A DNA stretch of 31,520 nucleotides, from IMG/VR virus record IMGVR_UViG_3300042448_001346, positions 1-31,520 of that record; one strand, written 5' to 3'. How positions within the stretch are numbered: the stretch's first letter is position 1; every line of letters begins with the position of its first letter. Below, piece after piece: positions 17,857 to 31,520 of the stretch. The position numbers and the translations under genes are program-made. The DNA comes from a virus. Taxonomy: Duplodnaviria > Caudoviricetes. The notes under the pieces are model-generated. The model saw only the letters and a program-made list of their open reading frames with translations, had not been told where the DNA came from and did no database searches.

Positions 17857-20800
17857 ATGAATATAAAAGAAATAGATAAACCTGAAATTAAAAAAGTAGT
17901 AGTAGTTTACGCTGGTAGATTTCAACCCTTCCATAAAGGACATTATGCTACTTATCAGAAATTAGTTTCTAAGTTTGGTGCAAATAATGTTTACATAGGA
18001 ACTTCTAATGATACTTCAGGACCAAAATCTCCTTTTAATTTTAATGAAAAGAAAACTATAATGACTAAAATGTTTGGTATATCTCCAAATAAAATAGTTC
18101 AAGTAAAAAACCCATATGCACCAAAAGAAATTTTAAGTGGTATGGATGGAAAGACTACTGCCTATGTTGCAGCAGTTGGACAAAAAGATGCAGATAGATT
18201 AGCAGGTAAATATTTTAAACCATATAATGGTAAGACTGGATATGGTTATGATGAAATTGGTTATGTTTATGCAGTTCCTGCGGAAGATAACGCTATAAGT
18301 GGAACTGATGTTCGTAATTGGTTAAGTAAAGGCGATGATAAAGATAAACAAAAAGGATTTACGAAAGCATATCCAAAATTTGACAAAGATATATTCAATA
18401 TGATAACAGGTAAATTAAATGAAGAACTATACAAAGGCTACCCTTCAGAAGAACAAGTAAAAGATATCGAAAGAAAAAATAAAGAATTTAGAAATTCACC
18501 TGAATCAACTTCAGATGATGAATATCTTTATGACCCAATTGCAGAATTAATTGGTAGAGCTGCAATGGAAGAAATGTTTGAAGAATTTACTAGAACATAT
18601 TTTAACGAAGAATCTGAAGCAGAGAAAATGGGATTAACCCATTTAGGTGGTGGGTATTATGGTAAAGAGGGGCAACCGGCTACCCACAAATCAGATAATG
18701 GTAAAATTCGTACATTAACTCCAAAAGAAATTGATGCAGTTAAGAAAAAAGCAATGTCTAAAGGGCCTTCCGATGCACCTGTTAACGAACCTAAGCCATC
18801 TCAACCAGGTCAGCCTGTTAATAAAGGAGCAACTGCACAGGGTAAAGTAGATAAGAAAAAAGAAGAACCAACTGCAGATAAAAAAGGTGGAGCAGATACT
18901 GGAAAACAAGCACCTCCTCCTGAGCAAAAATTAAGTGGAGCAGAATTAAAATCTTCTGCCGAAATGACTGATGGGGATAAGAAAAAAGCAGAAGTAAAAG
19001 AGAAATTACACCAAGCTATGGCTGATTTATCAGATGATGAGAAAAAAGCAGCTGAAGATACTAACAACCCTGAATCTGAAACTAGAAAAGGTTGGTATGA
19101 AAAATTAAATGATTGGACTGGAGATAAATTACATAAGGTTGGTAAAGCAGTTGGGCATGTTATTGCACATAAAGTAGACCAATATAAAGAATTTGGTAAA
19201 GGAATGTACTCAATAGCAACTTCAGGTAAATTGGGTACTATTAAAGACGAAAAAACTGGTAAAAAAGTAAATTGGTCTGATTATACTCAAGAAGGTGATA
19301 AGGGGTTTTTTGGAAATATGAAGCCTAAAATGCAAGAAGTTCCTGTTTATAAAAAAGATAGCCATGGACACGATGTACATGACGAAGAAGGTAATCCCGT
19401 TCAAGCTAAAGATTGGAGAGGTAGACCTAAAACTACAAAAGAACCTGTATTCAGAGAAGATTTATCTCCAAGAGAAAAAGCATTAGCAAAGAAATCTTGG
19501 TACGAAAGAAGTGAGCAATTAAAAGGAATAAAAGGAACAGCAATGGATGCCGCTGTTATGTGTGCTAGTATGGCAGTGGCTGGAGCTGGAGTAGGAGCTT
19601 TAGCAGCTAAAGGAATCGGTACAACTGCAAATGTAACCGCATATGCAGGTCAAACCATTGGACAAGCAGCAACACACGGTGCGGCTAGTGCATTTACACA
19701 TGGAGCATTAGGATTTAGTACACATTTAGGTAAAGATATGGTTAAGCATGTTGCGTTTGAATCTGTTGGAGCTGGCGCATTACAAGCAGGTGGTGGTGGT
19801 GCTGTATTGAGCGTTGTAACGGGTGGTATTTTGGAAGCCATAGATGATAAATCAAATCAACCAAATCCACAAGATATGATGATGAACCTAATAAAGAAAA
19901 TAGGTGAGAGAATGGGAACATATAAGATGACCGATGAACAAATGTTGGCATCTATTGAATCATATAAAAAAAACAAACCTGAATCTGATTTAAAAAATGC
20001 AGCAATGGATTTGATGAAAGAGGATATTTCAGAATCAAAACAACAATCAATTCAGAATTTTGTAGAGTTTGCAACTAAAAGATTAAAATTAAAAGAAACA
20101 CCAAATATTACATTAGTTGGTGGTAGAGAGTTTGCAGAAGTAAAAACATCATTGGGTGGATATAATCCAGATGATAAATCAATATATGTAGCAACCGAAG
20201 GTAGATTAACTGCTGATATTTTAAGAACACTTGCACATGAAATGGCTCATAGAAAGCAAGATGAGATGGGATTGGTTACAAATGCAGAAACCGATGGAGC
20301 AGATGGTTCTCCAATAGAAAACAAAGCACATGCAGTAGCTGGAATCTTAATGAGAGAATATGGTAGAATCAACAAACAAATTTATAATGAAGATATCAAT
20401 GTAGATGTTGATAAGGGTGATACTGTTTTAATGGGTAAGTTTAAAAACAAAAAAACTACCGTTAAAGATATTGGAACTGATGACTATGGGATGCCAACAA
20501 TCAACGGAAAGAAAGCAACTACATTCAGAATTCCAAGAGGTGAAGAGAAATCTAATCCACAATCAGTATTCAATGAAGTAGGTCCAAACGATTGGCATTT
20601 TAAAGCAATTATGAAGATGTGGGATACCGCTGGTTCATTTGGTAGAAAGAAAATTGGAGTGGTAGTATGTAACGACCCAAAGGCTGATAGAAACGATGTA
20701 GCTAGAAAGTTAAGAAACTACGGATATAAAGAAGTTACCCATGTTACTGATAAGTTGGGATTAGACGAAAAAAAAAATCTAAATGAATTAACACAAGGTT

Positions 20801-22221
20801 TATTCGCAGGTAAGGTTAAGATAGGCGGACAGCCGGTTGAAATTGAAGTAGAATTATTAGGAGTAGATAATAAAACAAAAGAATTTATAACAAAAGTAAT
20901 TCATATTGATAAAAAATATCAAAGTAAATTACCAATAGGCTCTACATTCAAAATTCCCGCAAGAATATTCAGAATGCCAGGCGGTGGTTGGCACAAAATC
21001 AAATCATCTGCATTTAAAGAATCCCTAAACGAAGGTGGAGCATATGGACATATGTCACATCCATTTGATGATATGGATTTAACTTTTGGTGATTTAAAAA
21101 AGATTATCAAAGGAGCATTAACTGGTAATTTAGAATTGACAAGAGAAAAAACCGATGGACAAGCATTGGCAATTAGTTGGAAGAATGGTAGATTAATTGC
21201 AGCTAGAAATAAATCACATTTACAAAATGCCGGAGCAGGGGCAATGGGAATTGAAGATGTAGCATCAAAGTTTGGTGGTAGAGGTGGATTAACCGATGCA
21301 TATAACTTCGCTATGAAAGATTTATCCGTAGCAATTCAATCACTTTCGGAAGCACAACGAAAAAAGATATTTGATGAAGGAAAATGTTTTATGAATTTGG
21401 AAGTAATATGGCCAACTTCGGTAAATGTAATTCCTTATGGACAGGCTTTATTAGTATTCCATAATACAACTTGTTACGATGAAAAGGGTTCTGCGATTAG
21501 TGCAAATCAGGGAGCAGCAACTATGTTAGCAGGAATGATTAAGCAAGTGAACGCTGATGTTCAATCAAAGTATACAATACAAGGTCCACCTGTAACAGAA
21601 CTACCTAAAAAAGAGGAGTTAAGTTCAAAACAAACAAAGTACCTTACTCAATTACAAAAGATACAATTTCAGTTCCAATTATCCGATAAAGATGGTGTAT
21701 CTGAATATCATCAAGCATGGTGGGAAGATTTTGTAAATAAATCAAAAGTTAAATTACAAAAATTAGAAAAGGAAGCATTAGTAAGAAGATGGGCATTTGG
21801 TGATAAATCATTCCGTTTAAATACTATTGCTGATAAAGATGCTCAAAGTTGGGCAATTGAAAATGATAAAGTAAATGTAGCTAAACAACAAAAAGATAAT
21901 GTTAGACAATTTGAAGAAATATTTTTGGGTGTTGGGGCAGATGTTCTTTCATTTATGGGTTCAGTATTAACTGTAAATCCAGATGCAGCTGTTCGTAGTA
22001 TGAAAGATAGATTAAAATCAACTGCTGAAAAAGTTAGAGGTAGTGGTGATATATCTAAAATAGCTAAATTAAAAATGGAATTAAGTAGATTAGCTAGTAT
22101 TGGTGGTAAAGATAAAATAGTACCAAACGAAGGTATTGTATTTGTTTATAAAGGTAATACATATAAACTAACAGGTACATTTGCACCACTAAATCAGATA
22201 TTAGGTATATTTTACGAATAA
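17857..22221 (+). CDS. Multidomain protein: HxGH nucleotidyltransferase + Gly-zipper region + HExxH metallopeptidase + small modules + ligase-like nucleotidyltransferase (DUF6267-like); putative head-packaged polyprotein
   Basis: GRFQPFHKGH and ISGTDVR (cytidylyltransferase/NMNAT-like); TLAHEMAHRKQ...E; EKTDG, NLEVI, EGIVF and YKLTG (ligase motifs I, III, IV, V); modules separated by LNE/FNE/YNE/ILE/ISE. Confidence 0.8.
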   Translation: MNIKEIDKPEIKKVVVVYAGRFQPFHKGHYATYQKLVSKFGANNVYIGTSNDTSGPKSPFNFNEKKTIMTKMFGISPNKIVQVKNPYAPKEILSGMDGKTTAYVAAVGQKDADRLAGKYFKPYNGKTGYGYDEIGYVYAVPAEDNAISGTDVRNWLSKGDDKDKQKGFTKAYPKFDKDIFNMITGKLNEELYKGYPSEEQVKDIERKNKEFRNSPESTSDDEYLYDPIAELIGRAAMEEMFEEFTRTYFNEESEAEKMGLTHLGGGYYGKEGQPATHKSDNGKIRTLTPKEIDAVKKKAMSKGPSDAPVNEPKPSQPGQPVNKGATAQGKVDKKKEEPTADKKGGADTGKQAPPPEQKLSGAELKSSAEMTDGDKKKAEVKEKLHQAMADLSDDEKKAAEDTNNPESETRKGWYEKLNDWTGDKLHKVGKAVGHVIAHKVDQYKEFGKGMYSIATSGKLGTIKDEKTGKKVNWSDYTQEGDKGFFGNMKPKMQEVPVYKKDSHGHDVHDEEGNPVQAKDWRGRPKTTKEPVFREDLSPREKALAKKSWYERSEQLKGIKGTAMDAAVMCASMAVAGAGVGALAAKGIGTTANVTAYAGQTIGQAATHGAASAFTHGALGFSTHLGKDMVKHVAFESVGAGALQAGGGGAVLSVVTGGILEAIDDKSNQPNPQDMMMNLIKKIGERMGTYKMTDEQMLASIESYKKNKPESDLKNAAMDLMKEDISESKQQSIQNFVEFATKRLKLKETPNITLVGGREFAEVKTSLGGYNPDDKSIYVATEGRLTADILRTLAHEMAHRKQDEMGLVTNAETDGADGSPIENKAHAVAGILMREYGRINKQIYNEDINVDVDKGDTVLMGKFKNKKTTVKDIGTDDYGMPTINGKKATTFRIPRGEEKSNPQSVFNEVGPNDWHFKAIMKMWDTAGSFGRKKIGVVVCNDPKADRNDVARKLRNYGYKEVTHVTDKLGLDEKKNLNELTQGLFAGKVKIGGQPVEIEVELLGVDNKTKEFITKVIHIDKKYQSKLPIGSTFKIPARIFRMPGGGWHKIKSSAFKESLNEGGAYGHMSHPFDDMDLTFGDLKKIIKGALTGNLELTREKTDGQALAISWKNGRLIAARNKSHLQNAGAGAMGIEDVASKFGGRGGLTDAYNFAMKDLSVAIQSLSEAQRKKIFDEGKCFMNLEVIWPTSVNVIPYGQALLVFHNTTCYDEKGSAISANQGAATMLAGMIKQVNADVQSKYTIQGPPVTELPKKEELSSKQTKYLTQLQKIQFQFQLSDKDGVSEYHQAWWEDFVNKSKVKLQKLEKEALVRRWAFGDKSFRLNTIADKDAQSWAIENDKVNVAKQQKDNVRQFEEIFLGVGADVLSFMGSVLTVNPDAAVRSMKDRLKSTAEKVRGSGDISKIAKLKMELSRLASIGGKDKIVPNEGIVFVYKGNTYKLTGTFAPLNQILGIFYE

Positions 22222-23594: not shown

Positions 23595-25202
23595 ATGATT
23601 CAAAATCAGCCAAAAAAGAATCTAAAAGATATCATTGCTGAAGAATATCGTAAGTCTGCAAACGACCCGATATACTTTATGAAAAAATATTGTGTCATCC
23701 AACATCCAACAAGAGGTAAGATACCATTTCATTTGTATCAATTTCAGGAAAATTGTTTAGATGATTTCAAAGATAATAGGTTCAATATAATTTTAAAATC
23801 CCGCCAGTTAGGTTTATCAACTCTATCGGCGGGCTTTATTCTTTGGAAGATGTTATTTAATCAGGACTATAATGCGTTGGTTATTGCAACTAAAGTAACT
23901 GTTGCAAAAAACTTAGTAGAAAAGGTAAGGGTTATGCACGATTTACTTCCAATTTGGTTGAGAGATGGTGGAAGCTCATCCGTTGAAGATAACAAACTTT
24001 CCCTTAAATTAAAAAATGGTTCTCAAGTAAAAGCTATTGCAAGTTCTCCAGATGCAGGTCGTTCTGAAGCCTTATCACTATTGGTAGTAGACGAGGCCGC
24101 ATTCATTAGAGATATTGATGAAATTTGGTTATCGGCACAATCAACCCTATCAACAGGTGGTTCGGCAATCGTATTATCTACACCAAATGGTATTGGTAAT
24201 TGGTTTCATAAAATGTGGGTAGATGGAGAAAGTGGTGCAAATGGTTTTAATTGTATTAACTTACATTGGACTGTACACCCTGAAAGAAATCAACAATGGA
24301 GAGATGAACAAACAAGAATTTTAGGAATTAAAGGAGCAGCACAGGAATGTGATTGTGACTTTGTTGGTTCTGGTGATACTGTAATCGACCCGGCATTATT
24401 GACTTGGTATAAAGATACATATGTGATGGAGCCAATAGAAAAAGCTGGGTTTGATGGGAATCTTTGGAAATGGGAATATCCAAATTACAATAAGTCATAT
24501 ATGGTTGTAGCCGATGTGGCGCGAGGCGATGGAGCCGATTATTCTACTGCCCAAGTATTAGATATTGAAGATTGTACCCAAGTAGCTGAATATAGAGGGA
24601 GATTGGATACAAAGGATTTTGGAAACTTCTTAGTAAGTTTAGCAACTGATTATAATAATGCATTACTTATTATAGAAAATGCCAATGTAGGTTGGTCAGC
24701 AATTCAACAAGTAATTAATAGAGCATATCCTAATTTATTTTATATGAGTAAGGATTTACAATATATTGATACTGAAAAACAAATGAGTAATAGGTATTAC
24801 AGAGATGAAAGAAATATGGTTGCTGGGTTTTCTACAACATCAAAAACCCGTCCTCTTATCATATCTACATTGGATACCTATATGAGAGAAAAAGATATTC
24901 TCATTCGTTCTAGCAGATTGATTGATGAAATGTTTACTTTTATTTGGAGTTCTGGTAGAGCTGAAGCTATGAAAAGTTACAATGATGACTTGATTATGGC
25001 ATTGGGAATTGGACTATGGGTTCGTAACACAGCGCTTAGATTGAAGCAAGAAGGGATTGATTTAACCAAAGCAATGTTGAATTCATCTACGGTTAAATCA
25101 TATGAAGAGGGGGTTTATACTAGCAATTGGCAAAAGGATAATCCATATGAAATGAAAATAGGTAATGGGGAAGTAGAAAATTTGAAGTGGTTGCTTGGAT
25201 AA
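23595..25202 (+). CDS. terL: Terminase large subunit (T4 gp17-like)
   Basis: FHLYQFQ Q-motif, KSRQLGLST, Walker B LLVVDEAAF, STPNG; RNase H-like nuclease DVARG..DYS, IENAN and NDDLIMA. Confidence 0.95.
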   Translation: MIQNQPKKNLKDIIAEEYRKSANDPIYFMKKYCVIQHPTRGKIPFHLYQFQENCLDDFKDNRFNIILKSRQLGLSTLSAGFILWKMLFNQDYNALVIATKVTVAKNLVEKVRVMHDLLPIWLRDGGSSSVEDNKLSLKLKNGSQVKAIASSPDAGRSEALSLLVVDEAAFIRDIDEIWLSAQSTLSTGGSAIVLSTPNGIGNWFHKMWVDGESGANGFNCINLHWTVHPERNQQWRDEQTRILGIKGAAQECDCDFVGSGDTVIDPALLTWYKDTYVMEPIEKAGFDGNLWKWEYPNYNKSYMVVADVARGDGADYSTAQVLDIEDCTQVAEYRGRLDTKDFGNFLVSLATDYNNALLIIENANVGWSAIQQVINRAYPNLFYMSKDLQYIDTEKQMSNRYYRDERNMVAGFSTTSKTRPLIISTLDTYMREKDILIRSSRLIDEMFTFIWSSGRAEAMKSYNDDLIMALGIGLWVRNTALRLKQEGIDLTKAMLNSSTVKSYEEGVYTSNWQKDNPYEMKIGNGEVENLKWLLG

Positions 25203-26326: not shown

Positions 26327-28066
26327 ATGGCAGATAAATCAATATTCGGTAGGTTACAAAAATTATTTTCAACAAACACCATTGTTCGTAAAACAAAAAA
26401 AGGTGTTAGAGTCATTGATACAGATGAATATCAATCAATGTCAACTAACCTTGTTGACCGTTTTATGAAAATGAAAACACCCGCATATAGTACTGGAATG
26501 CTTGAATCTGCAATGTCTTATCAACAAGTAAGAGCAGATTTATTCAGAGATTATGATTCAATGGATAACGACCCTATTTTATCTTCTGCTTTAAATATTT
26601 TTGCTGATGAATCAACTCCAAAGAATGAACATGGTGATGTATTAAGAATCAATTGTTCAAATGAAAATATTAAAAGTATTCTTCATAACTTATTCTATGA
26701 TATAATGAACATAGAATTTAACTTATGGCCTTGGGGTAGAAACTTAGTAAAATATGGCGATTTCTTTTTACAATTAGAAATTGCTCCAGAATTAGGTATT
26801 ATAAATATAGTACCAATGTCAGTATATGAAGTTAGTAGAGTTGAAGGATTTGATATGGAAAATCCACAAAGAGTAAAATTTGTTTATTCACCATATACCA
26901 ATCCATACGGAAGTACACAAGCTTCAAACAAAAAAGAATACGAAAATTATGAAGTAGCCCATTTCCGTTTATATTCGGATGCAAACTTCTTACCATATGG
27001 TAAATCAATGTTAGAAGGAGCTAGAAGAGTTTGGAAACAATTAACTCTTATGGAAGATGCGATGTTAATCCATCGTATTATGAGAGCTCCTGAAAAGAGA
27101 ATCTTTAAAATTGATGTAGGTAATATTCCACCAAATGAGGTAGATAATTACATGCAAAAAATTATAAACGCAAGTAAAAAGACTCCATTTGTTGATGCGG
27201 CTACTGGCGATTACAATTTGAAATATAATATGCAAAACCTTATTGAAGATTATTATATGCCAGTGCGTGGTAATGATAATGGTACTTCAATTGATACTCT
27301 AAAAGGTTTAGAATATAATATGGTGGATGACCTTAACTATTTAAAAAATAAGTTAATGGCTGCACTACATATTCCAAAAGCATATTTAGGATACGAAGAA
27401 GATATTAGTGGTAAAGCAACTCTTGCATCACAAGATGTTCGTTTTGCAAAAACAATAGAAAGAATTCAAAAAGTATTGGTATCTGAATTAACTAAGATAG
27501 CAATTGTTCACTTATATGCACAGGGATTAGATGATGCAGATGATTTAGATTTTTCTTTAGAATTAACAATCCCATCTAAAATTTATGAGCAAGAAAAAGT
27601 TGAATTATATACTTCAAAGGTAGCATTGATTCAGCAAATGCAACAAACTAAAATGTTTTCTAAAAAATGGATGTATGATACGGTAATGGATATGACTCCT
27701 GAAGAACAGGATGAATTAACATTAGATGTGTTGGATGATACTAAACAACAATTCCGTTTAACTTCTATTGAAACACAGGGTGTTGACCCTGCTAAACCAA
27801 CTGGTGCAGAAGGAGAGCCAACAAATGTTGAAGAAGAATTGGATAGATTAAAAACCGAATTGGAAACTGAAGGAGATGTTGGTAGACCAAAAGACCCGGT
27901 TAGATATGGTAAAGATGACCATCCATTAGGAAGAGACCCATTCGGTCAAAAATCTAATAAACAAAAAGAAGGTTCTGTCAAATATAAACCAAGAGAGAAT
28001 TACAAAGAAATTTTTAAGGATATGATGGGAAATAAAAAGACTATTTTGACAGAAGATTCTAAATAA
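26327..28066 (+). CDS. Portal protein (T4 gp20-like)
   Basis: YDSMDNDP, LMEDAMLIHRIMRAPEKRIFKIDVGNIP, EDYYMPVRG..GTSIDTLKG, ALHIPK; lies between terminase and prohead protease. Confidence 0.95.
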   Translation: MADKSIFGRLQKLFSTNTIVRKTKKGVRVIDTDEYQSMSTNLVDRFMKMKTPAYSTGMLESAMSYQQVRADLFRDYDSMDNDPILSSALNIFADESTPKNEHGDVLRINCSNENIKSILHNLFYDIMNIEFNLWPWGRNLVKYGDFFLQLEIAPELGIINIVPMSVYEVSRVEGFDMENPQRVKFVYSPYTNPYGSTQASNKKEYENYEVAHFRLYSDANFLPYGKSMLEGARRVWKQLTLMEDAMLIHRIMRAPEKRIFKIDVGNIPPNEVDNYMQKIINASKKTPFVDAATGDYNLKYNMQNLIEDYYMPVRGNDNGTSIDTLKGLEYNMVDDLNYLKNKLMAALHIPKAYLGYEEDISGKATLASQDVRFAKTIERIQKVLVSELTKIAIVHLYAQGLDDADDLDFSLELTIPSKIYEQEKVELYTSKVALIQQMQQTKMFSKKWMYDTVMDMTPEEQDELTLDVLDDTKQQFRLTSIETQGVDPAKPTGAEGEPTNVEEELDRLKTELETEGDVGRPKDPVRYGKDDHPLGRDPFGQKSNKQKEGSVKYKPRENYKEIFKDMMGNKKTILTEDSK

Positions 28067-28118: not shown

Positions 28119-28994
28119 ATGAAAACTATTAAACACTCAAAGTTTAAAAATACAGGATTTATTTTTGAATTATTGGTTAGACAAGTGACCTCAGAAATCA
28201 TGTCTGGCAAAATAAATTCTATCGCAGAAAAGATATTAAAAGAGCATTTTAATTCAAAAAAGGAATTATCCAAAGAATTAAAATTATATCAATATCTTAT
28301 TAATGAAAAATATAATTCAGAAAGTAAAGCTGAGAAATTCATTGATACAATATGCGAAGCTCGTAAAAGATTAGACGAGAAAAAACTTACAAAAGAGAAA
28401 TACATTCTTATTAAAGAAATTAAAGAAACTTATGGGTTAGATGAGTTTATTAAATCTCCTATTTCAAATTATAAAACATTAGCATCTATTTATAAAATAT
28501 TTGAAGTAACTACATCAGAGGAACAATACGAGCCAACTGATATAGTTTCATCTCGTTTTACTATTGCTGAAAATATTATTAATTCTTCGATTCAAAACAA
28601 AGATGTTAAAATCAAAGATGCTATAATGGAGCAATATAAAAAGCAAGATGATGATTTAAGAGCAATATCTTATAAATTGTTAATAGAGAATTTCAATAAA
28701 AAATATAAAAATTTATCTTTACAACAAAAAGGATTATTGAAGGAATATATCAATAATATGAATAATACTGGCAAATTAAAAGAATATGTATCAGTAGAAG
28801 TTCATACAATTGTTGAGGGATTAAAAGAAGTTGGTTCTAAAATTTCTGATAAAGTTACAAAAATTAAATTAGCAGAAACGATTTCAAACTTAAAGAAAGT
28901 TAAATCAGCTAAAGCTATTAAGGAATCGCATTTATCAGCTATGATGATGTCATACGAACTTTTAAAAGAATTAAAGGATGCCAGCACAAAGTAA
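28119..28994 (+). CDS. Hypothetical head-region protein (helical, K/E-rich; possible prohead core component)
   Basis: 291-aa ORF immediately after the portal gene; function inferred from position only. Confidence 0.6.
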   Translation: MKTIKHSKFKNTGFIFELLVRQVTSEIMSGKINSIAEKILKEHFNSKKELSKELKLYQYLINEKYNSESKAEKFIDTICEARKRLDEKKLTKEKYILIKEIKETYGLDEFIKSPISNYKTLASIYKIFEVTTSEEQYEPTDIVSSRFTIAENIINSSIQNKDVKIKDAIMEQYKKQDDDLRAISYKLLIENFNKKYKNLSLQQKGLLKEYINNMNNTGKLKEYVSVEVHTIVEGLKEVGSKISDKVTKIKLAETISNLKKVKSAKAIKESHLSAMMMSYELLKELKDASTK

Positions 28995-29745: not shown

Positions 29746-30057
29746 ATGAAAATATCTCAATTAAAAGAACTTGTTAGGCAAGTAGTGAAAGAAGAAAACG
29801 ATTACCAACAATTATTTAAGCATATGCTTGATAAATGTGGTAAATCAATTACTGATATGTCTGATGATGAGAAGAAGAAATTCTTCAATGCCGTAGATAC
29901 TGCTTATAAAGCAAAATCTGAAGGTAAATTGAGAGGATATAATGAAAACTTACCTGGAAATCAGGAAAAGTTAGATACTGATAAGGATGGTGAGATTGAA
30001 GGTTCGGATTTAGCAGCATTAAGAGCTAAAAACGAATCGGTTAAAAAAAAAAGGTAA
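29746..30057 (+). CDS. Small head-region protein with EF-hand-like loop; ends at an A10 slippery run
   Basis: Leader MKISQLKELVRQVVKE; DTDKDGEIEGSD at 29974-30009; A10 at 30043-30052 just before TAA. Confidence 0.7.
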   Translation: MKISQLKELVRQVVKEENDYQQLFKHMLDKCGKSITDMSDDEKKKFFNAVDTAYKAKSEGKLRGYNENLPGNQEKLDTDKDGEIEGSDLAALRAKNESVKKKR

Positions 30058-30470
30058 ATGAAAATCTTGCGGTTGATATAATAGCCACTGTTGGTACTAT
30101 ATTAATTGCTAAGATTATTTTTTACTATATGATAGATTTGGCACAAAAAGGAATGAAATATTTCCAAGGTAACCAAAACTACAAAAAAGAGGTTAAACAA
30201 ATTTTAGATTCTATATCAAACGATAAGAAGACAATATCAGATATAGCTAAAATGGTTGACCCTAAAAAGGGAATTGATAATACAACTGTTGATAAAATTA
30301 TAAATTTACCATATGTAAAAACTCAAATAATAAAAATGAGTGATAAAACAAATGGTGAATTAAGTGAAACGGAATTAGAAAATCAATTAAAGACTATTAT
30401 ATTAAAGTCTTGGAATGATTCATCAATAACGGATAACGCTGTTGAAAAAGTTAAAAAGGATTTAAAATAA
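30045..30470 (+). CDS. Hypothetical protein; frame open upstream of the listed ATG (30129) back to the A10 run, probably the -1 extension of the preceding ORF
   Basis: Frame reads KKKVNE-NLAVDIIATVGTILIAKIIFYY-MIDLAQ... with no stop from 30045; includes a TM-like hydrophobic helix. Confidence 0.6.
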   Translation, partial: KKKVNENLAVDIIATVGTILIAKIIFYYMIDLAQKGMKYFQGNQNYKKEVKQILDSISNDKKTISDIAKMVDPKKGIDNTTVDKIINLPYVKTQIIKMSDKTNGELSETELENQLKTIILKSWNDSSITDNAVEKVKKDLK

Positions 30471-31060
30471 TGAATAAAGGATTATTAATAGAAACCCATT
30501 TGTTTGAAGCAAAACTTCAGCAAGAAGAAAATGGAACTTATTTAGTTAAGGGAATCCTACAAAGAGCAGGAGCCGCTAATCAAAATGGTAGAAGATATCC
30601 TAAAGAAATCTTAATAAGAGAATGTCAGAAATACGGACAACTCATTAAAGAAAGAAGAGCATTGGGTGAATTAGACCATCCAGATTCTCCCGTAATTAAT
30701 TTAAAGAATGTATCTCATAACATTAGAGAAATATATTGGGAGGGTGATGATGTGTGTGGTGTAGTAGAAATCTTATCAACTCCATCTGGCAATATTCTTA
30801 GAGAACTATTAAAAAATAATATTCGTTTAGGTATTTCATCAAGAGGGCTAGGTTCAGTTAAAGAATTGAATGATGGAACTGTAATGGTTCAGGAAGATTT
30901 TGAATTAGTAGGTTGGGATTTTGTTTCTAACCCATCAACACATGGAGCATTTATGGCACCTATGAATGAATCAAAGCATTGGAAGCAAGTAGCAGATGAG
31001 TGTGGTAAGTGGTGTAAGTCACAAGATTTAATGAGAGAAATTATAATAGAATTAAACTAA
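30470..31060 (+). CDS. Prohead core protease (T4 gp21-like)
   Basis: NQNGRRYP, ALGELDHP, NVSH, TPSGNIL, LGISSRGLGS and DFVSNPST. Confidence 0.95.
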   Translation: MNKGLLIETHLFEAKLQQEENGTYLVKGILQRAGAANQNGRRYPKEILIRECQKYGQLIKERRALGELDHPDSPVINLKNVSHNIREIYWEGDDVCGVVEILSTPSGNILRELLKNNIRLGISSRGLGSVKELNDGTVMVQEDFELVGWDFVSNPSTHGAFMAPMNESKHWKQVADECGKWCKSQDLMREIIIELN

Positions 31061-31323: not shown

Positions 31324-31520
31324 ATGATACGCTTAAAAGACCTATTAAAGGAAGAAGAAGAACTTCAGCAGTTAACAACTGAATTGAAAAAACATTTCTT
31401 AGAAATAATTTCAACATACGGTCAACATAGAGAAGGTATGACTAGAAAATCTGATATCAGACAAGTTGCAGAAACTTTAGGTGGTATCGCAGATGCTGCA
31501 CAAGAATATACTTTAAGAGA
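31324..31520 (+). CDS. Hypothetical head-region protein (partial; not in the ORF track)
   Basis: ATG at 31324, reads MIRLKDLLKEEEELQQLTTELKKHFLEIISTYGQ... and is open to the window end. Confidence 0.7.
   Translation, partial: MIRLKDLLKEEEELQQLTTELKKHFLEIISTYGQHREGMTRKSDIRQVAETLGGIADAAQEYTLR

Follow-up and report, generated by a model that had tools for sequence, protein, structure and literature searches.

This locus raises the question of whether a run of ten A residues at the very end of a small phage gene serves to join the product of that gene to a second domain encoded downstream in another reading frame. The window, by which we mean the whole 31,520-nt stretch of DNA that was analysed, is the head region of a large A+T-rich phage. 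The features on which the argument depends are as follows.

23595-25202: terminase, by Pfam and PHROG profile matches
26327..28066, plus strand: portal protein, T4-like (PF07230, E 1.4e-72)
29746..30057, plus strand: gene A, 103 aa, the default short product, between the portal and prohead protease genes
30042..30044, plus strand: TAA in the -1 frame, confining the shift to the run in the window's genome; not conserved
30043..30052, plus strand: the A10 run, the proposed slippage site (A10 in 57, A11 in 27 and A12 in 2 of 86 overlap loci; none shorter)
30053..30126, plus strand: predicted long RNA hairpin, 74 nt (-24.6 kcal/mol, z -4.65, 0/200 shuffles)
30054..30062, plus strand: V-N-E in the -1 frame, predicted prohead-protease site with the cut after E; conserved triplet
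30054..30470, plus strand: domain B, 138 aa, start-less, all-helical (pLDDT 92.5)
30055..30057, plus strand: zero-frame stop, overlapped by the first codon of B; a stop right after the run in 86/86 loci
30066..30122, plus strand: 19-residue hydrophobic segment at the start of a 34-residue predicted helix (Kyte-Doolittle 19-mean 2.21)
30470..31060, plus strand: prohead protease, T4 gp21-like, family S77 (PF03420, E 1.6e-29; phrog_207)

At the junction, gene A ends in GTT (30040-42), ten A (30043-30052), GG and the stop TAA (30055-57). In the -1 frame, the sequence after the TAA at 30042-44 reads K-K-K-V-N-E-N-LAVDIIATVGTILIAKIIFYY and stays open into the 113-aa ORF, to 30470; this annotated ORF, which begins at ATG 30129, is a truncated part of domain B. 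The letters of the junction, the stop and the -1 reading are therefore as an earlier note on this DNA had described them, and the fused product of about 241 aa that it expected was computed at 241 aa for the addition of one A or for a -1 shift. The removal of two A gave 240 aa, and every other junction change tested in silico ended at 103-105 aa. The same note held that the -1-frame TAA confines the shift to the run, which is true of the window's genome but does not extend to relatives, where the -1 frame is open for 3-21 codons upstream. Gene A itself has a helical N-terminal part and a DxDxDG-type acidic loop, and it has no Pfam or PHROG match and no similarity to the positionally similar gene of phage Mel-JY01. 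The loop lies at 29974-30012, and longer homologs have one or two copies and carry precomputed dockerin (PF00404) or EF-hand (PF13499) matches; calcium binding is possible.

In the window alone, the number of runs of at least ten A was not beyond chance (2 seen against about 2.1 expected under synonymous resampling), and the case for the A10 run thus rests on comparison, that is, on its conservation and on a genome-wide purge of similar runs. Among the 256 ORFs of the relative G001, runs of at least nine A were seen twice against 17.8 expected, and A8 runs 18 times against 43 expected, which indicates that long A runs are purged in this phage family. Five near-complete relatives (1.07 Mb) contained seven runs of at least ten A, three at the A-B junction, three at a second site that is discussed below and one elsewhere. 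The lone outside A10 (L322; G005:C1:63198-63207) lies in the reading frame of an unrelated ORF, a few codons from its end.

To follow the junction across relatives, loci were gathered by viral and metagenome scans with gene A, B and a natural fusion as queries; some of the query patterns contained the junction peptide, and most did not. A relative of gene A was encoded by 267 viral stretches, 80 of which were taken into the locus set. Deduplication on 180 nt around the start of B left 96 contexts, and after three without gene A in the fetched DNA had been set aside, 93 distinct loci with both genes remained. In 86 of them, B lies in the -1 frame behind a run of A10-A12 and a zero-frame stop, overlapping the stop of gene A, and the motif triplet is present in 86/86. 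The out-of-frame pairing of poly-A and xNE that the earlier note suggested looking for is hence conserved, and the homologs are mostly out of frame with the run rather than always in frame without it. The remaining seven loci comprised three in-frame A11 fusions, three with a B that has its own start and one deletion. Within the overlap class, the identity of B drops to 35%. In 16 distinct loci where the protease gene directly follows gene A, the longest A run at the end of gene A is just 3-7. B has no match in two of the five near-complete relatives, both of which are without the junction run, and it is therefore not a core gene. No homolog of the A-B pair was found among 50,697 phage records, that is, in no cultured phage, and no homolog of the fusion was found in GTDB genome contigs.

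The region between the run and ATG 30129 is informative about how B is reached. Over the 25 codons upstream of this ATG, no stop was found in the B frame in 75 distinct segments, and each other frame was closed in 75/75. The pN/pS of the segment was 0.19, 0.34 and 0.51 by divergence class, indicating that the -1-frame peptide upstream of the ATG is under purifying selection. An ATG stands at the 30129 position in 31/86 loci, and 30/86 have none among their first 40 codons. Because the B frame is open and under selection without a conserved start, B is a real coding domain that is reached through the run. In addition, the first codon of B, which lies over the zero-frame stop, is GTA in 79, ATA in 5, CTA in 1 and GTG in 1 of the 86 loci and is never GTT, although GTT is nearly as frequent as GTA genome-wide. 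Since this codon always makes the zero-frame stop, the short product also appears to be selected.

Homopolymers are error-prone, and true in-frame fusions occur in relatives, two points in favour of an assembly error in an ordinary fused gene. However, the contigs of 4/4 lake DNA runs (Logan contigs, which drop rare variants and leave minor indels invisible) bridged the A10 with no indel; these runs, 4 of the 15 that contain most of the window's words, come from four studies, one of them possibly the window's own sample. The junction is also identical in three IMG/VR contigs, and the same frame relation holds in 86 diverged loci. The choice between A10 and A11 raised by the earlier note thus falls to A10, the assembly error is refuted at the level of contigs, and we give it practically no weight. 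It could also be argued that B is a separate gene starting at ATG 30129, at a nearby TTG or at a non-canonical codon, with the run as mere Lys codons or as an initiation leader; gene callers give B at 105-134 aa, a TTG stands at codon 29 in 57/86 loci, and one lineage has a true stand-alone B. No start codon is conserved among the first 40, though, codon 29 switches between TTG and TTA, which are synonymous for Leu, and the peptide is conserved up to the run. Moreover, stand-alone B acquired a new leader before x-N-E, not a start inside it. The independent start at 30129, which the earlier note had left as a possibility, is rejected given the rarity of the ATG and the purifying selection upstream of it, and a separate start for B in general is very improbable. 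DNA-level phase variation, in which replication slippage would turn A10 into A11 in some genomes and only those would make B, finds an argument in the in-frame A11 alleles, which exist in three distinct contexts (4 loci; proteins P0004 and P0086-P0089). Yet B is under purifying selection although 86 of 90 adjoining loci have an out-of-frame consensus, and the A10, A11 and A12 variants in the -1 class differ by frame-preserving substitutions, the sole +1 case being a 46-nt deletion. Together with the absence of an indel in the four runs (contigs only) and an in-frame state that is stable in three assemblies of one lineage, this makes phase variation improbable, if less so than a separate start. 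We consider it very probable that recoding occurs at the A10 run.

The exceptional loci are natural variants of the same junction. The in-frame fusions (P0004, P0086-P0089, L217, L218/L219, L223) encode exactly the junction that was predicted, and on a quick tree with 80 overlap rows the in-frame A11 alleles arose at least twice. The programmed slippage proposed by the earlier note stands in so far as recoding at the run is strongly supported, but in the in-frame A11 relatives the default product would be reversed. At the L048/L085/L149 junction, one contig has lost 46 nt just upstream of the run, which brings B into the +1 frame; this is either a natural mutant or an assembly fault. The three loci with a separate B have their own leader and keep an in-frame A10. 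In this lineage (L059:3013-3460, L068, L082; P0140, P0150), the leader is short and resembles that of the ORF at 31324, the in-frame A10 precedes S-V-N-E and the hairpin is lost; the A10 is possibly an attenuator or a relic. The leader pattern was tried as a specific mark of head genes and rejected, as of 305 ORFs in G001 it matched just 4, of which one lies in the head module, and it did not pick up gene A.

The predicted RNA hairpin begins at the 3' edge of the run and covers the zero-frame stop. Its z value was below -2 in 18/20 main-clade, 1/6 VV-clade, 0/3 stand-alone and 3/3 in-frame loci. Compared with synonymous resampling, the hairpin window gave a z of -3.1, whereas the other 11 windows of B ranged from -1.4 to +0.4, and 19/26 diverse loci were below -2 at this position. 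In an alignment of 22 sequences, from which VV and stand-alone loci were left out, the pairs hold in 93% of cells, against 38-59% when the structure is slid. Synonymous partner bases of Leu and Lys codons in the stem agree in 58/65 rows, a count that rests on 4-5 changes, and their covariation was not significant on phylogenetically independent pairs (p=1). A search of Rfam gave a chance miRNA match below the gathering score. An ATG right after the gene A stop opens a 7-codon zero-frame ORF (30058-30081) that is buried in the hairpin, which may suppress re-initiation there. The hairpin is likely to act either as a ribosomal booster or as a block on internal initiation.

The short and fused products could be made by slippage of the host RNA polymerase or by a shift of the ribosome. 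Polymerase slippage is favoured because run length is the most strictly kept signal: at least ten A are found in 86/86 overlap loci, with a run of 10 in 57/86. In the fourth-last codon of the 80 overlap tree rows, the first base changes 15 times, and the second and third bases, both A, never change; the sequence after the run varies among G, GG, T and C. In the nine loci ending in AGG, whose run lacks its last 3' A, a class with 3-4 origins on the tree and hence few independent events, the run was extended 5' in all and is never down to A9, and CAA or GAA at that place is found in 0/9 against 55/77 of the others. These patterns support selection on run length rather than on a codon-phased heptamer. 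[quoted passage not shown] The VV clade (18 tree rows) keeps A10-11 with a strong hairpin in just one of six tested loci, so that the run is indispensable and the hairpin is not, and polymerase slippage is therefore taken as the base mechanism; we put the chance that it is the main route at about even. No RNA polymerase beta subunit was found in the five near-complete relatives (0/5; controls 14/14); a search for a single-subunit polymerase, for which there was no positive control, was uninformative. A sigma-70 promoter scan of the window was uninformative, with 24 sites against 20.9 expected and no terminator.

Programmed -1 ribosomal frameshifting would yield the same two products by tandem Lys-tRNA slippage at A_AAA_AAG or A_AAA_AAA, with the hairpin and the adjacent stop causing a pause and the long run offering positions for tandem and E-site slips. 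The stop is preceded in 71/86 loci by A_AAA_AAG, which is the best heptamer for a -1 shift in bacteria, and A_AAA_AAA is found in the window and the rest. The predicted hairpin 3' of the run points the same way; masking of the first 7 nt, which a ribosome would cover, leaves it most of its energy, it is weak in 3/3 loci where B has its own start, and it cannot act as RNA on a polymerase that is still at the run. However, 6 A would be enough for a heptamer and 9 for a tandem pair, and every locus has at least 10; the G of AAG is also accounted for by the motif's Val codon. The hairpin is weak in 5/6 VV-clade loci, and its scant covariation concerns a structure derived from the same alignment. 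In addition, an upstream Shine-Dalgarno-like word is present in 31/86 loci and absent from the window, so a conserved internal stimulator of this kind was not found. We regard a mainly ribosomal mechanism as a serious but rather doubtful alternative to polymerase slippage.

The start of domain B carries a conserved triplet. A Glu is found at codon 3 or 4 after the run in 86/86 loci (GAA 60, GAG 26), and the residue two places ahead of it is V, I or L in 86/86; the motif columns were anchored on the triplet, and no locus was dropped for want of the motif. T4 gp21 has an aliphatic preference at its cleavage site, and the gene that comes next in the head module of the window encodes a gp21-like protease (PF03420, 30470-31060). 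The proteases of T4, phiKZ and SPN3US are described as cutting after Glu (PMC5694885; PMC10052503). The motif [VIL][NKST]E was counted 346 times in G001 against 277 in shuffled sequence and is in excess also in an SbcCD-like enzyme; since it is common and occurs in a non-structural enzyme, the motif alone is no proof of a protease substrate. Behind it, the hydrophobic segment has a Kyte-Doolittle 19-mean of 1.73-2.41 in 41/41 diverse B proteins, and in the model of B the first helix spans residues 3-36. The conserved triplet and this segment would fit a cleavage site followed by a membrane-type helix, and cleavage at VNE is probable. However, the segment contains Asp/Glu and Lys and the model shows a single long helix running into the domain, so instead of anchoring in a membrane the segment may serve as a helix for packing or binding.

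Neither profiles nor folds assigned B to a known family. It has no Pfam or PHROG match, and PDB fold searches with the fusion and with B alone returned nothing above background, which is not evidence of a new fold. In the fold comparison of B, the best value was for VIA (Z 5.9, rmsd 2.8, 80 aligned); colicin N rows (Z 5.5-5.8) were within background and were rejected as not meaningful. The sole strong structural match was BFVD A0A6J5M8K1, an uncharacterised phage protein of 204 aa whose alignment extends across the modelled fusion (TM 0.84 by target, 40% identity). In the ESM Atlas, a single hypothetical cluster was retrieved, at 0.76.

The surroundings of the locus are those of a T4-like head module in a freshwater phage. 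All 15 runs that contain most of the window's words are lake or freshwater metagenomes; the matching RNA runs (X16-X20) contain just 0.05-0.17 of the words. The nearest named portals are those of Mel-JY01 (51.7%) and Flavobacterium phage immuto (46.5%). The contig L094, which overlaps the window and is nearly identical to it, goes on to bS21, a scaffold-like acidic ORF and the Gp23 capsid gene. Similar bS21-encoding phages have been placed in Bacteroidetes hosts (PMC9723584), and on the grounds of the portals, bS21 and the head-module context the host is likely to be a member of the Bacteroidota. As in Immutovirus (immuto), Mel-JY01 and the bS21 freshwater Bacteroidetes phages of PMC9723584, the order is portal, protease, scaffold-like gene and Gp23 capsid. 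The bS21 gene (L094:2015-2194), between the protease and scaffold-like genes, is on the head-gene strand, unlike in the five clades described in that paper, where it is on the reverse strand. The words frameshift and slippage are absent from the main text of PMC9723584, whose supplements may list these gene families. A 291-aa ORF after the portal gene (28119-28994), syntenic with immuto and Mel-JY01 genes, has 9 [VIL][NKST]E motifs against 2.6 expected and is a candidate core protein degraded by the protease.

We propose that in part of the transcripts the host RNA polymerase inserts one extra A, so that they would encode the 241-aa fusion, while unslipped transcripts would give the 103-aa short form; the 3' hairpin probably contributes a measure of -1 ribosomal shifting. 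Carried by A, the fusion would enter the prohead, and at maturation a protease cut after V-N-E would free a 135-aa protein with the membrane-type helix first. Freed B would be a low-copy cargo that acts at the host membrane on ejection or anchors the prohead. We lean towards this scheme as a whole, with the A10 as a conserved recoding site whose slippage yields the 103-aa product and a 241-aa A-B fusion that is packaged and then cleaved. Packaging of the fusion through gene A, taken by itself, seems reasonably likely, and it is a tentative view that B is a membrane protein, either ejected or serving as a prohead anchor, with a copy number that the slip rate sets.

The only other run of at least nine A in the window lies in a large ORF upstream.

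17857..22221, plus strand: 1454-aa multi-module ORF with an N-terminal cytidylyltransferase-like domain (phrog_395, E 2.2e-16)
20768..20777, plus strand: second A10, in frame within the 1454-aa ORF and followed at once by L-N-E

This ORF has 11 [VIL][NKST]E motifs against 4.8 expected, and a slip either way at the second A10 would lead to a stop at 974-976 aa. The second site closes a module of about 65 aa, which long forms of gene A carry as an insert as well. The module (about 20570-20770, starting NDWHFKAIMKM) sits between xNE motifs, recurs in P0086-P0089, L148 and L222, moves between the large polyprotein and gene A, and is present as a tandem duplicate in L303/L304. Among 20 distinct homologous module ends, at least ten A were found in 12, at least nine in 15 and 3-8 in five, counts of limited independence because 7 of the 12 belong to close relatives of the window or share its peptide. 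A strong 3' fold at the second site was mostly absent (z below -2 in 2/9). These observations suggest that the second A10 is a candidate site of partial truncation, a lead towards one cassette used in both polarities: out of frame, it would add a rare module, as from A to B, and in frame it would trim a share of the 1454-aa cargo polyprotein. The cassette would work both ways because the x-N-E codons supply stops in both wrong frames. That such a portable combination of A10 and protease site serves as a copy-number valve for capsid cargo, through host RNA-polymerase slippage at two loci per genome, is a speculative and rather unlikely extension.

The recoding signals themselves are of known kinds, as in dnaX, tssM and the capsid and tail frameshifts of phages. 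For tssM1 of Citrobacter rodentium, a shift of about 20% on A11 has been reported, with both forms and their ratio needed (PMC4256274). The junction resembles tssM1 and Yersinia pseudotuberculosis tssM3 (PMC4256274) in that poly-A shortly before a stop leads to short and long forms, there of a component of a phage-tail-like machine. However, the tssM case as described concerns a bacterial chromosomal gene with the stop 28 nt downstream and transcriptional frameshifting, whereas here the gene belongs to the head module of a phage, the stop lies right against the run, which is followed by a protease-like site and a hairpin, and slippage is predicted from sequence. In dnaX, the RNA polymerase of Thermus thermophilus slips on a run of 9, and E. 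coli makes a -1 shift on A_AAA_AAG with a Shine-Dalgarno word and a stem-loop (PMC5009743). The likeness lies in a short and a long product of a single gene, in A_AAA_AAG and in a stem-loop 3' of it; the present case differs from dnaX as presented there in a run that exceeds the heptamer and is never below 10, in having no conserved Shine-Dalgarno word and in its product, a phage head protein that has a cleavage motif where the two parts join. That review (PMC5009743) also describes reversed cases, in which the shift site is immediately followed by the zero-frame stop, and notes that the roles can be swapped by one base change, as they are in the in-frame A11 alleles here.

Among phages, lambda G-T, gene 10 of T7/T3 and A2/A118/PSA (PMC5009743) likewise use a frameshift near the end of a gene to add a C-terminal domain at a set ratio. 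In that account, those are ribosomal heptamers in capsid, tail and chaperone genes, whereas here the long A run belongs to a small gene next to that of the prohead protease, and the appended domain is predicted to be released by cleavage. The T4 internal proteins, Alt and SPN3US gp47 (PMC5694885) are head cargo whose propeptide is removed after Glu by the prohead protease, as is predicted here, and gp47, an ejection-protein candidate, has a predicted transmembrane helix after the expected cleavage site. The resemblance of B to gp47 is one of analogy, not homology; no sequence or fold relationship to gp47, Alt or the T4 internal proteins was found, and these are, as far as that paper describes them, made without recoding. 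In the literature covered, listings and main-text passages from outside most subscription journals, we found no account of such signals in a gene of the prohead core whose junction carries a cleavage motif.

If the proposed reading is true, the copy number of a head cargo is controlled, in a widespread family of large freshwater phages, by poly-A recoding combined with a maturation-protease site. Hundreds of database entries for B (402 matches) would then probably carry false starts that cut off the hydrophobic helix. Natural controls are provided by lineages in which B is out of frame, in frame, stand-alone or missing, and by the presence or absence of the hairpin, so that the shares of polymerase and ribosome are testable. 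The phage structural-gene frameshifts covered in PMC5009743 are ribosomal, and a polymerase case would extend that mode of recoding to virion assembly. Should the cassette reading also hold, it would provide a phage case of programmed transcriptional slippage that tunes virion composition in genomes from which other long A runs have been purged.
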